Positions 37,535 through 41,089 of a stretch of 64,000 bases of DNA are shown piece by piece. Within the stretch, counting starts at the first letter, position 1; the number at the start of each line of letters is the position of its first letter. Source of the DNA: a virus. Lineage: Duplodnaviria; Caudoviricetes. Location: the IMG/VR virus record IMGVR_UViG_3300025723_000013; one strand, written 5' to 3'. The notes below the pieces were generated by a model. That model was not told where the DNA came from. It searched no databases and saw only the letters and a list, made by a program, of their open reading frames with translations. Position numbers and translations under genes: made by a program.

Positions 37535-37784
37535 TTTTTTTCCTTTCTTTGATTTTTCTACGTTCAACTATTCTCTGTCTTTTTTCTTCTAGCATTTTGG
37601 TTCTAGTAATGGTACAATTTCTTCTCATTTCTGCAACTAATTTTTTAAGTCGTTTCATTACCTTGGTAATGCTTTCGGAATTATAATAATTTGGTCTTCT
37701 AATAAATCTTAAATGAGCATTGTGATACTCGGCTAAAAGATCAATAAATTCTTTATGTAATTCTATGTACTTGTTTATCATCAT
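37476..37784 (-). CDS. Basic hypothetical protein (102 aa)
   Basis: Coupled to the gp46 stop; K/R-rich helical protein. Confidence 0.55.
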   Translation of the reverse strand: MMINKYIELHKEFIDLLAEYHNAHLRFIRRPNYYNSESITKVMKRLKKLVAEMRRNCTITRTKMLEEKRQRIVERRKIKERKKNENTNINTNADINPGINNN

Positions 37785-39772
37785 GCATCAATCCAGTCGG
37801 CTGAATTTGAATAAGATGTAAATCCGGATTCTTTTACCACTCGTAGTACATTGTTTACTCTTCCGATCAATTCCTCTTTGTGTGAAATCAGGAAAATGTT
37901 TTTATTTCTTTCTCTGGCCATCTTTTTTAACACACTTAGCCCTGCTTCAACACCTGCGGAATCCATGCCAGAATCTATCAACTCGTCAATAAACAGCAGA
38001 TTGATGGGTTTATACAAGTTTTCCCAAACATCTCGAAAGGCAAAACTCATGCTCAATATCAGTCTGTTACGTTCGCCTCGTGAAAGATTATCAAAATCTA
38101 GATCTTGACCAAAATTGGTGATTTCAACCGATAAATCATTTTGAAAAACCACCATATGAGGTAATCCCAATTTGTCTATGTAATAGCTTAGTCGTTTGTT
38201 GAGATAATTTAAATTTTGATCGATGATCTTTTTGCGTATAAAACTTTCTTTATTGGTCAGCAGCTTCAATAGGAATTCTTGATGTTCTTTTAAATTGTTT
38301 AATTCGTTGATCTTGTGCCATGCAATTTCCTGCAATGCGGTTTTTTCTAATTCTTCAATTTGTTCCTGATAGGGATTTTCATCCTGTTTTCTGTCAATCA
38401 ATGTTTTCTCTAAAGAGTTAACTTGACTTTTATGATTGAGTGCATCGGCCTGTGTGGGATAAAACACAGTGGGCTTGTTGCCAATCTCGCCCACACCGTG
38501 AATCTGATCCACTACATTTTGCAATGTTTGATACACAGCATCATAATAATCTGTGGCATCTTTTAGATTGTGTTCAGCGTCATGCACCAAGTTGGTATGC
38601 TTGTGATCCTGAAGAGTCTGTTCACACTGAGGACATTTTCGATCCGCCAATGCTGCAATTTCTCTTTGATATTTTTTAACCGACTTGTCCGCCTGTGACA
38701 ATGCAGACTCGTAACTGATTTTTTGTCTGCGTAAATCCGTCAGCTGGTTATTTTTTTCCTGCCACAGAGCGAGGCCGGCATGATCGCTCAATTCCTGTTC
38801 AATGTCAATGGCTTGCAAGGTCACGATGGCATCACTGAGATCTTGTAAATCGGAGGTCTTTTTATTTTCCCATGCGGTACTTTTTAGTATCAAAGAATTG
38901 ATACTGCGTTGCACACTTTCGTTGGCTGTTTTTATGCTTTCAATTTTAATCTGTTCGGTTTGTATAGAATCCTTAGAAGATTTAATCAACAGTTTGAGTG
39001 TTTCGGCCTTTTCACTCAGCAAAGTGATGCCCAGCAGTTGTTCAATCACTTCTCGTTGATCCGCAGCCTTCATGGAAAGAAAAGGTTCGGTATATGTGTT
39101 CAAGGCTACTAGATGTTTGAACATGGTATGACTCATGCCCAACTTGTGTTCTATGAATTTTTGCGTTTCTCTGCTGTCGCCCTGCGCATCATCGTCCTTG
39201 CTTTCATGCTCGTGATTATTGATGAAAACCTTGAGCACGTTTGGTTTTCGACCTCGTTCAATGCGTATAAGTTCGCCGTCATTTTCAAACTCGCCGGTGA
39301 CCAACATGTTCTTGCCGTTGATTTTGTTGATCAAGTTTTCTTTCTTGATATTGGACAACGCCTGCCCAAACCACAGATAGGACAATGAATTAATAATGGT
39401 CGTGTTGTGTGATAATATGCCGTTGGTATAGTATCTGTGATCTGCCGAATCTACTGTGATATCAAACATGTTTTCTGTTCTATCGGACACAGACAGCGAG
39501 GTAACTAGTTCTGGACCATGCTGGGTCTGCACATATGAGCTTGGTTTGATATGCTTGACGAATTTTTCGTTGAGCTTTTCATCAAACAAGATATGATCAT
39601 CTGCGCACTCAAGCATTTTTCCGGATTCTGTTTGAATAGTCCAAACTTGATATGGCACAGTTTTCATTATTTTAGAAATGGGTTTCCACCCAGAATCTGT
39701 TTCTATCTCAAGATTCTGCAAATCCACACTGTCGACAAATTTTCTGTTCACTGTGTCAGAAATTGAATGCAT
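37781..39772 (-). CDS. gp46: gp46 (Rad50/SbcC-like) C-terminal fragment fused to the IntC half of a split intein (123 + 540 aa)
   Basis: Starts with an intein C-part ending YYTNGILSHN|TTIINSLSY. Then coiled coil, zinc hook CPQC, signature LSRGE, Walker B LLFIDE and LISH. Confidence 0.93.
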   Translation of the reverse strand: MHSISDTVNRKFVDSVDLQNLEIETDSGWKPISKIMKTVPYQVWTIQTESGKMLECADDHILFDEKLNEKFVKHIKPSSYVQTQHGPELVTSLSVSDRTENMFDITVDSADHRYYTNGILSHNTTIINSLSYLWFGQALSNIKKENLINKINGKNMLVTGEFENDGELIRIERGRKPNVLKVFINNHEHESKDDDAQGDSRETQKFIEHKLGMSHTMFKHLVALNTYTEPFLSMKAADQREVIEQLLGITLLSEKAETLKLLIKSSKDSIQTEQIKIESIKTANESVQRSINSLILKSTAWENKKTSDLQDLSDAIVTLQAIDIEQELSDHAGLALWQEKNNQLTDLRRQKISYESALSQADKSVKKYQREIAALADRKCPQCEQTLQDHKHTNLVHDAEHNLKDATDYYDAVYQTLQNVVDQIHGVGEIGNKPTVFYPTQADALNHKSQVNSLEKTLIDRKQDENPYQEQIEELEKTALQEIAWHKINELNNLKEHQEFLLKLLTNKESFIRKKIIDQNLNYLNKRLSYYIDKLGLPHMVVFQNDLSVEITNFGQDLDFDNLSRGERNRLILSMSFAFRDVWENLYKPINLLFIDELIDSGMDSAGVEAGLSVLKKMARERNKNIFLISHKEELIGRVNNVLRVVKESGFTSYSNSADWIDA
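39404..39772 (-). mobile_element. Split intein C-fragment (IntC, ~123 aa)
   Basis: IETDSGWKPISKI...LECADDH (block B)...MFDITVDSADHRYYTNGILSHN (blocks F/G); +1 residue is Thr. Confidence 0.9.
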
Positions 39773-40848
39773 TTTTCTATGGTTCCTGTCTTATCTTTTT
39801 TGAAATCTGATTCCCATACCACTAATACTTCATAGCCTTGATCAAAGGCGACCTTTAATTTTATACGGTCGATCTCCCATCTGTCAATGGCTTTGATTTT
39901 TGTTCTTGGATTTATATGTTCTGATGAATATTTCTTTGGGTTACTGTGCCAAAAATCGCCATTATATTCAATAATTTTTTTGCCAACATTTATGTCATAG
40001 ACATATTGCTTTTTATCTGACTTATTCAATGTGAATTGATGTTCTACTGATGGAAATATTTTCTTTACTTCAGCAAGGATTATTTTTTCAGCAGCAGAGA
40101 CAGTGATTCCTTTTGATAATTTCAATCGATTAATTCTAGCTTTCTCTTCTGGTAATTTAGCACTTAATGTTGCTTGCCACTTATCCTGTCTCGCTTGCCA
40201 AATTGATATTCCGTTTTCTTCTCCATATTTTTGTACACAGATATCTTTGGAAAAATATTTTTGATTCTCTGATACCAGCTCTTTTGCTTCATCAATGGAA
40301 TATCCTCTAGCAGTGTAGTATTCTTCACATCTTTTCGATGTTGCTCTTCGGATATGTTTATCCATCCCAATTTTAGCACCTTTTTTATTATTTTTTTGTT
40401 TGGTATCCGATGCTAACTGTGCGGCATCTATTTCAGAGTAACCCTGTTTGATCCAATACTCTGCTCTAATGGGTCTACGACTATTACGTTCAAAATCTGC
40501 TTCATCTACCGTATAGTTTGTTCCAGTGACTGGATTGATTTTTTCCAACCAAGTTTTGCGACTGTACACACTTTTACAGTTTTTTTGTTTGTTTTCTTTG
40601 GATTTGATGTGAGATTCTGCATCAGTCCATCCTCGAGACAGCCAGTATACTTTGGTATGTTTTGATAGTGTTGTGGTTAGATTCAATTTGCTTCTCAAAA
40701 ACTTTTCAATGATCTTTTTATTATTTTCAATATTAGATTCTAATAGTTCGTGTAGAAGATTCTGATACAGATCAGATTTGAGATTTTTAATAGTATTATT
40801 CAAGATATCTTTGCAGTTATTTTCTAGACTGTTGTTCCAACGCGGCAT
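39748..40848 (-). CDS. Free-standing Vsr/DUF559-like putative homing endonuclease (366 aa)
   Basis: C-terminal YDINVGKKIIEYNGDFWHSNP...DRIKLKVAFDQGYEVLVVWESD. N-terminal repeats YWLSRGW, YWIKQGY and YYTARGY. Has its own GGGAGA RBS and overlaps both intein-half genes. Confidence 0.85.
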   Translation of the reverse strand: MPRWNNSLENNCKDILNNTIKNLKSDLYQNLLHELLESNIENNKKIIEKFLRSKLNLTTTLSKHTKVYWLSRGWTDAESHIKSKENKQKNCKSVYSRKTWLEKINPVTGTNYTVDEADFERNSRRPIRAEYWIKQGYSEIDAAQLASDTKQKNNKKGAKIGMDKHIRRATSKRCEEYYTARGYSIDEAKELVSENQKYFSKDICVQKYGEENGISIWQARQDKWQATLSAKLPEEKARINRLKLSKGITVSAAEKIILAEVKKIFPSVEHQFTLNKSDKKQYVYDINVGKKIIEYNGDFWHSNPKKYSSEHINPRTKIKAIDRWEIDRIKLKVAFDQGYEVLVVWESDFKKDKTGTIEKCIQFLTQ

Positions 40849-40930
40849 TGTATAATTCTCCCATGGTCAGTTGGGTTATTTCACCAGTTACAGTGTTCCT
40901 AACCTTTACTAATGTATTTATACAAACACA
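40817..40930 (-). mobile_element. Split intein N-fragment (IntN, 37 aa)
   Basis: Block A CVCINTLVKVRNTVTGEITQLTMGELYN begins right after the Walker A Lys and ends at a TAA stop. Confidence 0.88.
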
Positions 40931-41089
40931 CTTGCCAGTGCCATTCCTGCTGCCGGTATCGTCGCCGCCTAGATCGAGATTGGCACCCAGCACCAAGGTC
41001 AGCATTTCTTTGCTGAAATCCACAGCCTGAGTCTGTTGACCCACGCTCATAAAATTCTTTACAGTCAAATTTTTGATTTTCAAGGTCAT
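40817..41089 (-). CDS. gp46: gp46 N-terminal fragment (53 aa) fused to the IntN half of a split intein (37 aa)
   Basis: MTLKIKNLTVKNFMSVG...VLGANLD...SRNGTGK|CVCINTLVKVRN; ATGA coupling to gp47. Confidence 0.93.
   Translation of the reverse strand: MTLKIKNLTVKNFMSVGQQTQAVDFSKEMLTLVLGANLDLGGDDTGSRNGTGKCVCINTLVKVRNTVTGEITQLTMGELYNAALEQQSRK

Follow-up and report, generated by a model that had tools for sequence, protein, structure and literature searches.

Fractured genes, as defined by Dassa, London, Stoddard, Schueler-Furman and Pietrokovski (2009; PMC2677866), are genes of conserved phage enzymes into which a split intein has been inserted; between the two halves lies a free-standing endonuclease gene of the Vsr-like or GIY-YIG kind, the open reading frames (ORFs) overlap, and such genes are known mainly from phages. 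The hosts listed in that study are gp41, DnaE, NrdA, NrdJ, DNA ligase, terminase and IMPDH, together with an SbcD-like gene that is fractured without an intein, and the study contains no mention of gp46, Rad50 or SbcC (PMC2677866). The described inteins closest to the one reported here are those of the terminase large subunit (TerL), in which the N-terminal part (IntN) is short and the C-terminal part (IntC) is long, i.e., 37 and 115 aa in GOS-TerL and 25 and 104 aa in AceL-TerL (PMC11766414). Here we analyze a stretch of 64,000 nt of DNA (the window) from the Caudoviricetes virus record IMGVR_UViG_3300025723_000013, in which gp46, a Rad50/SbcC-like ATPase, is encoded in two pieces, and we conclude that a selfish element made up of a split intein and an endonuclease gene has very probably settled in the Walker A motif of gp46, with trans-splicing joining the two gp46 proteins of this jumbo phage.

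All genes of the locus lie on the minus strand (coordinates are those of the whole window), in the order gp47, gp46 N-half with IntN, endonuclease gene, and IntC with the gp46 C-half. An earlier reading of this DNA, made from the sequence alone (the original prediction), held that gp46 is encoded in two genes, of 53 + 37 aa and 123 + 540 aa. Our reading of the ORFs bears this out, with a 90-aa ORF (40817-41089, minus strand) consisting of 53 aa of gp46 ending in NGTGK and then 37 aa starting with Cys, and a 663-aa ORF (37781-39772, minus strand) consisting of 123 aa ending in GILSHN and then 540 aa starting with TTIINSL. The original prediction left out the 366-aa endonuclease ORF between these two genes; the N ORF and the C ORF share one reading frame, and the “two frame changes” that it noted arise because the endonuclease ORF is in another frame. 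This middle ORF shares 32 nt with the N ORF and 25 nt with the C ORF, and has a GGAG Shine-Dalgarno sequence 9 nt before its ATG, within the IntN coding sequence. The stop codon of gp47 overlaps the start of the gp46 N-half as ATGA, and gp47 neighbours gp46 in all relatives. The C-half holds a CPQC zinc hook, an LSRGE signature, a Walker B motif (LLFIDE) and an H-loop, and the joined protein carries NGTGKTT, CPQC, LSRGE, LLFIDE and ISHK with gp47 directly upstream, features that identify it as a member of the gp46/Rad50/SbcC group.

The exact site of the insertion was located by fetching the best 80 IMG/VR relatives of the C-half and comparing all parts by tblastn. In 81 intein-less relatives (79 of these IMG/VR loci and the phages PA5oct and CBB) the last residue of the N-extein is followed directly by the first of the C-extein, which places the insertion exactly between the Lys and the Thr of the Walker A motif, i.e., GK/TT, where the slash marks the insertion point. 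The proposal that joining the halves restores the P-loop NGTGK-TT and a gp46 of 593 aa is confirmed by this contiguity, the gp46 of PA5oct being 584 aa long. The N-extein is 74-90% identical to the gp46 N-terminus in the 79 intein-less IMG/VR relatives, and the C-extein is 48% identical to PA5oct gp46 and 61-73% identical to its IMG/VR relatives, with alignments that start exactly at query residue 124. One further contig among the best 80, L004, contains the same three-ORF insert at the equal length of 1527 nt. Additional inteins in CBB, GAP32 and 121Q-type phages, for which tblastn matches to the C-half beginning at query residues 72-104 were considered, were rejected: the matches arise where the alignment runs on into the N-extein, and in CBB the exteins are contiguous.

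Codon usage at the site also differs between allele types. At the wobble positions (window 40925-40936 and 39398-39409, compared with L005-L083) empty alleles read GGT AAA/ACT and occupied alleles GGN AAG/ACV: the Gly codon is GGT in 64 of 81 empty versus 3 of 11 occupied alleles, the Lys codon AAA in 57 of 81 versus 2 of 11, and the Thr codon ACT in 58 of 81 versus 2 of 11. This may be a hint of target-site immunity to the endonuclease or of co-conversion, the 10 occupied loci of the lineage that were compared being few and non-independent.

The fractured arrangement recurs widely in metagenomes. Searching with the N-half identified 671 clusters at 90% identity, and the 120 of these that were listed are mostly 77-92 aa long and 68-92% identical to the query; Cys follows GxGK, as expected for block A, in 115 of these 120 representatives, and their IntN, usually 37 or 39 aa long, is most commonly 37 aa (79 of 120). 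Searching with IntC identified 405 clusters, mostly C-halves of 657-667 aa. Block B reads CAD[DTE]H in 104 of 107 C-halves, with an invariant His, the Asp and His of block F are present in 104 of 107, and the SHN of block G is followed by the Thr nucleophile in every one of the 107. All five distinct loci compared (L004, L087, L088, L089 and L090, taken from IMG/VR, JGI and ENA samples, with L091 and L092 repeating L090) show the same layout of N-half, an ORF of 351-368 aa, and C-half. Other gp46 alleles with an insertion at the K/T site, for which the original prediction had suggested looking, therefore exist as hundreds of split clusters and as a contiguous form, P0126, described below.

This recurrence bears directly on whether the locus is instead one contiguous intein with an in-frame endonuclease domain, broken up by sequencing or assembly errors or by ribosomal frameshifting, a reading that the shared frame of the N and C ORFs and the overlap of the middle ORF with both would favour. 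We give it next to no chance, since the same three-ORF layout and the same split point are shared, at 60-88% identity, by hundreds of clusters that come from unrelated assemblies, since in L088 the middle ORF is called 17 nt after the N-half stop without any overlap, since the endonuclease belongs to the free-standing EDxHD class and has a Shine-Dalgarno sequence and an ATG of its own, and since TerL relatives are split at the same point. Assembly error, which the original prediction named among the findings that would undo it, is thus contradicted by the same architecture in hundreds of independent metagenomic clusters.

Selection has acted on every part of the insert. Between the window and L004, the ratio of nonsynonymous to synonymous substitution rates (dN/dS) is 0.17 for IntN (81% identical), 0.15 for the endonuclease and 0.17 for IntC, values that indicate purifying selection on all three, and the two exteins are 69% and 65% identical at the amino-acid level with saturated dS. 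We considered with these data the alternative that the intein no longer splices, i.e., that its halves only hold the gp46 pieces together, as in Aeh1 NrdA, or that gp46 is inactive. Phage enzymes that are made in fragments and assembled without ligation are known (PMC3045599), and block B here is without its usual Thr. A non-splicing remnant is nevertheless highly improbable: Cys1, the block B His, the Asp and His of block F, the terminal Asn and Thr+1 are near-invariant down to ~55% identity, a conservation of splicing chemistry beyond the need of a mere docking module, an unexcised Hint domain of 160 aa in the P-loop would block ATP binding, and the exteins are under clear purifying selection.

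The conserved residues and the family relationships identify the insert as a predicted class-1 intein of 37 + 123 aa with Cys1 and Thr+1, belonging to the AceL-TerL/GOS-TerL/Cat family and split at the same point as its members. IntN is no longer than 40 aa and IntC no shorter than 100 aa, the split falls between blocks A and B, and block B lies in the C-half, i.e., the intein is atypically split. A phmmer search of PDB with IntC gave CatC (6dsl_B, E = 3.2e-6) as the best match, followed by gp41-1 and VidaL; CatC is a consensus of the AceL-TerL/GOS-TerL atypically split inteins (6dsl_B). The residues, the Pfam Intein_splicing match of IntC and the CatC match together uphold the earlier proposal of an atypically split intein at the K/T site of Walker A. 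The further proposal that the pair is a candidate new split intein stands with respect to its host, for which we found no description in the literature; it does not stand with respect to its ancestry, since the intein is of the same family and has the same split point as AceL-TerL, GOS-TerL and Cat.

Relatives in terminase genes are found both in cultured phages and in metagenomes. For example, IntC is 39-45% identical to the annotated TerL inteins of Ackermannviridae, and 53-61% identical to the metagenomic TerL C-halves P0234, P0237 and P0241, which begin with the same motif (..RKF..D...EIETD.GW); the TerL N-half of L094 ends with a homologous IntN of 38 aa, and the window IntN is homologous to the N-terminus of contiguous TerL mini-inteins. 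When the contiguous intein was used to scan 1.84 billion representatives with HMMER, 1072 relatives were recovered, with IntC at the N-terminus in 102 of the top 150, and the hosts of these relatives include, by Pfam, TerL, gp46-like proteins (SMC_N/AAA_23), DnaB-like helicases and ClpB-like AAA_2 proteins, with the junction GK/[ST] in each. The host in the window is gp46/Rad50-like and not TerL; since the family also occurs in DnaB-like and ClpB-like ATPases, a TerL host is no true defining feature of it. From these sequences, we read the gp46 intein as one branch of a lineage of split inteins that has spread between the P-loop sites of different hosts. The K/T position has been described as the “classic” P-loop insertion (Kelley 2016; PMC5050341), and a 2025 preprint proposes “extein switching” via nucleotide-binding sites (10.1101/2025.01.02.630785).

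We also observed that the metagenomic C-halves P0385, P0437, P0482, P0458 and P0379 carry this IntC first and then a second, contiguous intein in the same host (DnaB-like, ClpB-like or TerL), some of these second inteins having LAGLIDADG or DUF559 domains, so that a single ATPase can carry a split and a cis intein together. In the Salicola phage SCTP-2, gene 267 (L086:2492-3385, annotated “terminase large subunit”) opens with an IntC-like segment of 115 aa ending in GILSHN/TAVAAL, which marks it as the C-half of a TerL with an atypically split intein; its immediate upstream neighbours are encoded on the opposite strand, and the TerL N-half is not adjacent.

A contiguous relative of the gp46 element allowed both its fold and its history to be addressed. 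P0126 is a contiguous gp46 precursor of 749 aa, present in 15 contigs with the same synteny and with an intein at the same site, whose IntC is 82% identical to that of the window. Folded with an alignment of contiguous homologues and IntC fragments (A4), the P0126 intein gave a model with a predicted local distance difference test score (pLDDT) of 89.4 and a predicted template-modelling score (pTM) of 0.84, with low confidence only in the linker where the window intein is split. All of its top 50 PDB matches are Hint-domain proteins, nearly all of them inteins, the best being VidaL (6vgv, E = 2.9e-10, template-modelling score (TM) 0.86), and PolB16 OarG, Aes123 PolB1 and Cat are also matched. 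This model predicts that the two halves together form a Hint fold.

Examination of the DNA of a contiguous allele, L096, shows how it arose. Its junction reads TAC AAT / AAC CAT AGA AAA ATG CAT, the left side being the window IntN as far as its codon overlapping the start of the endonuclease, and the right side being identical to the 12 nt before the window IntC start codon. In the window these 12 nt encode the ...TIEK of the endonuclease, and in other split loci they differ and contain in-frame stops. L096 thus corresponds to a window-type allele that has lost 1062 nt (40846 down to 39785) and with them, in frame, the endonuclease gene; by this sequence comparison the contiguous L096-type allele derives from a split one, i.e., the fractured state can revert. 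For its last nine residues (AALEQQSRK) IntN runs, in another frame, through the 5′ end of the endonuclease gene, and these residues are missing from the re-fused allele. They are best explained as read-through and not as native intein, which would leave a functional IntN core of ~28 aa (40847-40930).

Fold search and conserved residues indicate that the middle ORF encodes a homing endonuclease of the Vsr-like (EDxHD) family. This protein consists of a helical N-terminal region and a C-terminal nuclease domain (~residues 265-366), and its tblastn matches include phage genes that bear the annotation VSR endonuclease, among them those of split PolB loci of the Aes123 type; some of its 191 homologues are named very-short-patch repair endonuclease by JGI. 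D285, E294, D298, H301, W345 and E346 are invariant in 39 aligned homologues, and D327 is near-invariant. E294 aligns to Phe62 of Vsr, with the motif iiEynGDfwH aligned to VIFTHGCFWH of Vsr, and an extra acidic residue at the Phe62 position marks the EDxHD family (PMC3239194). A profile of the endonuclease had Vsr as its top PDB matches, at a weak E of 0.3, and a single-sequence search of PDB gave nothing useful. The AlphaFold2 model (pLDDT 86.7) matched 3r3p, the catalytic domain of I-Bth0305I, in Foldseek with a probability of 0.99-1.00 and a TM of 0.60-0.69, and matched Vsr (1vsr, 1cw0) with a probability of 0.97-0.98. The helical N-terminal region of 260 aa has no Pfam family match. The ORF before the TerL C-half in L093 has a 71-aa module in common with the window endonuclease and a different C-terminus, which suggests that these endonucleases are modular.

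The distribution of the element among gp46 genes is patchy. In a FastTree tree of 191 C-exteins (188 labelled rows), presence of the intein requires at least 14 gains or losses among the 188 C-exteins, 9-10 of which are forced by well-supported branches. The nearest neighbour of the window outside its own near-identical cluster is the intein-less L005 (a 326-kb contig), and the smallest well-supported clade that includes the window has split, contiguous and empty alleles together. Such coexistence of empty, split and mini-intein alleles would fit a homing cycle. Several observations weigh against a mobile, splicing element in gp46. The tree has some long branches, so that the count of gains and losses is approximate. 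The intein and the endonuclease are more alike than the exteins between the window and L004, and this greater likeness could reflect stronger constraint and not recent transfer. The model with a Hint fold is that of the contiguous homologue P0126 and not of the window's own two halves. In block B the usual Thr is replaced family-wide by Ala (ADDH versus TxxH); the His of TxxH is essential and the Thr is usual, and CatC has Ser at this position.

Together, these data lead us to propose that a class-1 mini-intein at GK/TT of gp46 was invaded, just after block A, by a free-standing Vsr-like endonuclease gene. Three proteins would be made from the locus, gp46(1-53)-IntN, the endonuclease and IntC-gp46(54-593), the first translationally coupled to gp47 and the other two translated from their own start codons, which overlap the preceding ORFs. 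The short IntN would dock on a partly folded IntC and complete the Hint fold, Cys1 would form a thioester, Thr+1 would attack it, the terminal Asn of SHN would cyclise, and an O-to-N shift would yield a seamless gp46 of 593 aa with an intact P-loop (NGTGK-TT). The conserved residues and the family to which the intein belongs are the grounds on which each of these splicing steps is inferred. An unexcised domain of 160 aa would interrupt the P-loop, and the phage would therefore need splicing for a working gp46. Splicing is most likely constitutive, present because the phage needs gp46 and not as regulation. In homing, the endonuclease would presumably cut intein-less gp46 alleles during co-infection, and the whole element would then be copied in through recombinational repair; purifying selection on the endonuclease (dN/dS 0.15) and the patchy occurrence of the element lend such cutting indirect support.

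The original prediction went further and proposed that splicing could gate recombination-dependent replication. In such a regulatory reading, trans-splicing would depend on time, redox state or temperature and would switch on the Mre11-Rad50 nuclease. The break does lie in the P-loop, with neither half alone having a complete Walker A motif, a Cys1 and Cys3 pair (CxC) is common in the gp46 clade, a Cys precedes the block B His, and some P-loop inteins have been argued to act as sensors (Novikova 2016; PMC4760082). We regard gating as very unlikely, however, and none of our data point to conditional splicing: 79 of the best 80 IMG/VR loci are intein-less and manage without it, presence on the extein tree is patchy, as expected of a parasite, the same lineage includes a re-fused allele predicted to splice in cis, Cys3 varies across the wider family (it is Gly in L004), and no conserved regulatory element was found, the sole promoter-like site being unique to the window. 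Gating of recombination by splicing thus receives no support, and a selfish element that is forced to splice constitutively explains everything seen. It is likewise quite unlikely that the element is more than a parasite in the sense that gp46 trans-splicing is rate-limiting or conditional, e.g., via the cluster formed by Cys1, Cys3 and the block B Cys. If this were true, the onset of recombination-dependent replication and the homing of the element itself would both be tied to intein assembly. In T4-like phages, the gp46 nuclease-ATPase probably helps to resect the double-strand breaks made by homing endonucleases.

Table. Features of the gp47-gp46 locus, with coordinates in the 64,000-nt window.
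Feature	Position	Strand	Remarks
gp47 / Mre11-SbcD-like nuclease subunit, 337 aa	41086..42099	-	Pfam Metallophos, E 5.4e-6, above cut-off
gp46 N-extein, 53 aa, ends in Walker A NGTGK	40931..41089	-	weak AAA_23 match
IntN, 37 aa, starts with Cys1 (CVCINT...)	40820..40930	-	stop codon 40817-40819
Free-standing putative homing-endonuclease gene, 366 aa, Vsr-like/EDxHD	39748..40848	-	frame differs from gp46 ORFs
IntC, 123 aa: block B CADDH, block F MFDITV...H, block G GILSHN	39404..39772	-	Pfam Intein_splicing, E 1.1e-5
gp46 C-extein, 540 aa + stop, starts with Thr+1 (TTIINSL)	37781..39403	-	Pfam SMC_N and Rad50_zn_hook, both weak

We noted a near-consensus sigma-70-like promoter ~85 nt before the start of the C-half, where the endonuclease gene nears its 3′ end (39858-39887, minus strand; TTGACA-18-TAAAAT, 11/12). 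This site is not conserved in four related loci (L004, L087, L088 and L090), and a promoter for the C-half within the endonuclease gene was rejected as a chance occurrence, the site being unique to the window among the loci compared. Directly downstream of gp46, an 87-aa protein rich in Lys and Ala (37304-37567, minus strand) matches Pfam Hc1, the chlamydial histone H1-like family, above cut-off (E = 2.4e-10), and the syntenic gene of L096 gives the same match; we read it as a phage-encoded histone-like DNA-compacting protein beside the recombination genes. Downstream of this gene lies an S-adenosylmethionine-dependent methyltransferase with a Cys-rich N-terminal segment (35571-37307, minus strand; Methyltransf_23, E = 3e-25), which adjoins an ORF resembling GT1-family glycosyltransferases. 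In related loci, ORFs with DUF7487 repeats (PF24308) flank gp47 (L004:1861-3618; L090:98-1822 and 3676-4491), one of them lying between gp47 and the gp46 N-half in L090, and the ORF in L004 also resembles, weakly and below cut-off (E = 0.0066), the N-terminal domain of PvuRts1I-like restriction nucleases. Free-standing endonuclease-like genes may have a hotspot in the gp47-gp46 region.

An intein host of the gp46/SbcC/Rad50 group, for which the original prediction asked for a search, was not encountered in ours: we found no relevant paper that pairs an intein with gp46, SbcC or Rad50, and two large intein surveys mention neither Rad50 nor SbcC. The database sequences do contain a second case. 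Gene 539 of Salicola phage SCTP-2 (MF360958.1; L001:2164-4929, annotated “hypothetical protein”) is a gp46 homologue beside gp47 with an intein at the identical GK/TT site. In contrast to the window intein, this one is contiguous, 331 aa long, starts with Ala (AQPY...) and has a LAGLIDADG-type domain with its motifs. A Trp follows the block B His at a distance of two residues, block F contains a Cys, and the intein ends in T-H-N; we take this Trp/Cys/Thr (“WCT”) pattern to be that of class 3 inteins. Comparing the fetched loci by tblastn, IntC had no match in gene 539 at E <= 0.01, which indicates a separate intein lineage at the same site. The mechanism proposed here is thus of a known kind, we found no description of the gp46/Rad50 host in the literature, and the SCTP-2 gp46 intein is unannotated in GenBank; the element is conserved and real, has its use as a candidate tool and as a natural set of empty, split and re-fused alleles, and is not conceptually surprising.

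Few atypically split inteins occur in nature, and their short IntN, which can be made chemically, gives them value in protein semisynthesis and labelling. The gp46 element adds a Cys1/Thr+1 member with an effective IntN of ~28 aa, with hundreds of natural variants and with a natural contiguous counterpart, and extends the hosts of “classic” K/T inteins in P-loops to the Rad50/SbcC family; one lineage of split inteins has passed between the Walker A sites of TerL, gp46, DnaB-like and ClpB-like ATPases. The L096 junction is in addition a nucleotide-resolution record of how a fractured gene, on losing its endonuclease gene, reverts to a contiguous intein gene, and matched natural alleles (empty, split with endonuclease, and re-fused) would make the origin and the reversibility of split inteins directly testable. 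There is also a consequence for annotation, as the 90-aa N-halves, if they carry any name, are called “hypothetical protein”, and most C-halves either are unnamed or pass as whole SbcC proteins.

Compared with the systems described previously, the window falls within the definition of a fractured gene given by Dassa et al. (2009; PMC2677866). Its predicted endonuclease shares with I-Bth0305I (PMC3239194; PDB 3R3P) a bipartite architecture and the conserved Asp, His and Asp together with the family-specific Glu; I-Bth0305I is encoded in an intron, whereas the window endonuclease is free-standing between intein halves, with a cleavage activity and target site that are predicted only. The TerL mini-inteins of Ackermannviridae (Klebsiella phage Magnus and Vibrio phage Kuja) occupy the same local site (QSGK/TT versus NGTGK/TT) and are of nearly the same length (159 versus 160 aa), with the identity noted above extending over the IntC part; they differ in splicing in cis, in being without an endonuclease gene, and in residing in another host protein. 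The closest likeness is to GOS-TerL, AceL-TerL and Cat, which, like the window intein (37 and 123 aa), combine a short IntN with a long IntC, use class-1 chemistry and are split just after block A, and the split TerL relatives are likewise inserted at the Walker A GK/[ST]. The IntN of GOS-TerL can be trimmed from 37 to 27 aa (PMC11766414), which is paralleled in the window by the last nine, apparently non-native, read-through residues of IntN. What sets the window intein apart from the TerL inteins is its host, gp46/Rad50-SbcC versus the terminase large subunit, its block B sequence ADDH, and its nucleophiles, i.e., Cys1/Thr+1 versus Ser1/Cys+1 in GOS-TerL and Cys1/Cys+1 in AceL-TerL and Cat.

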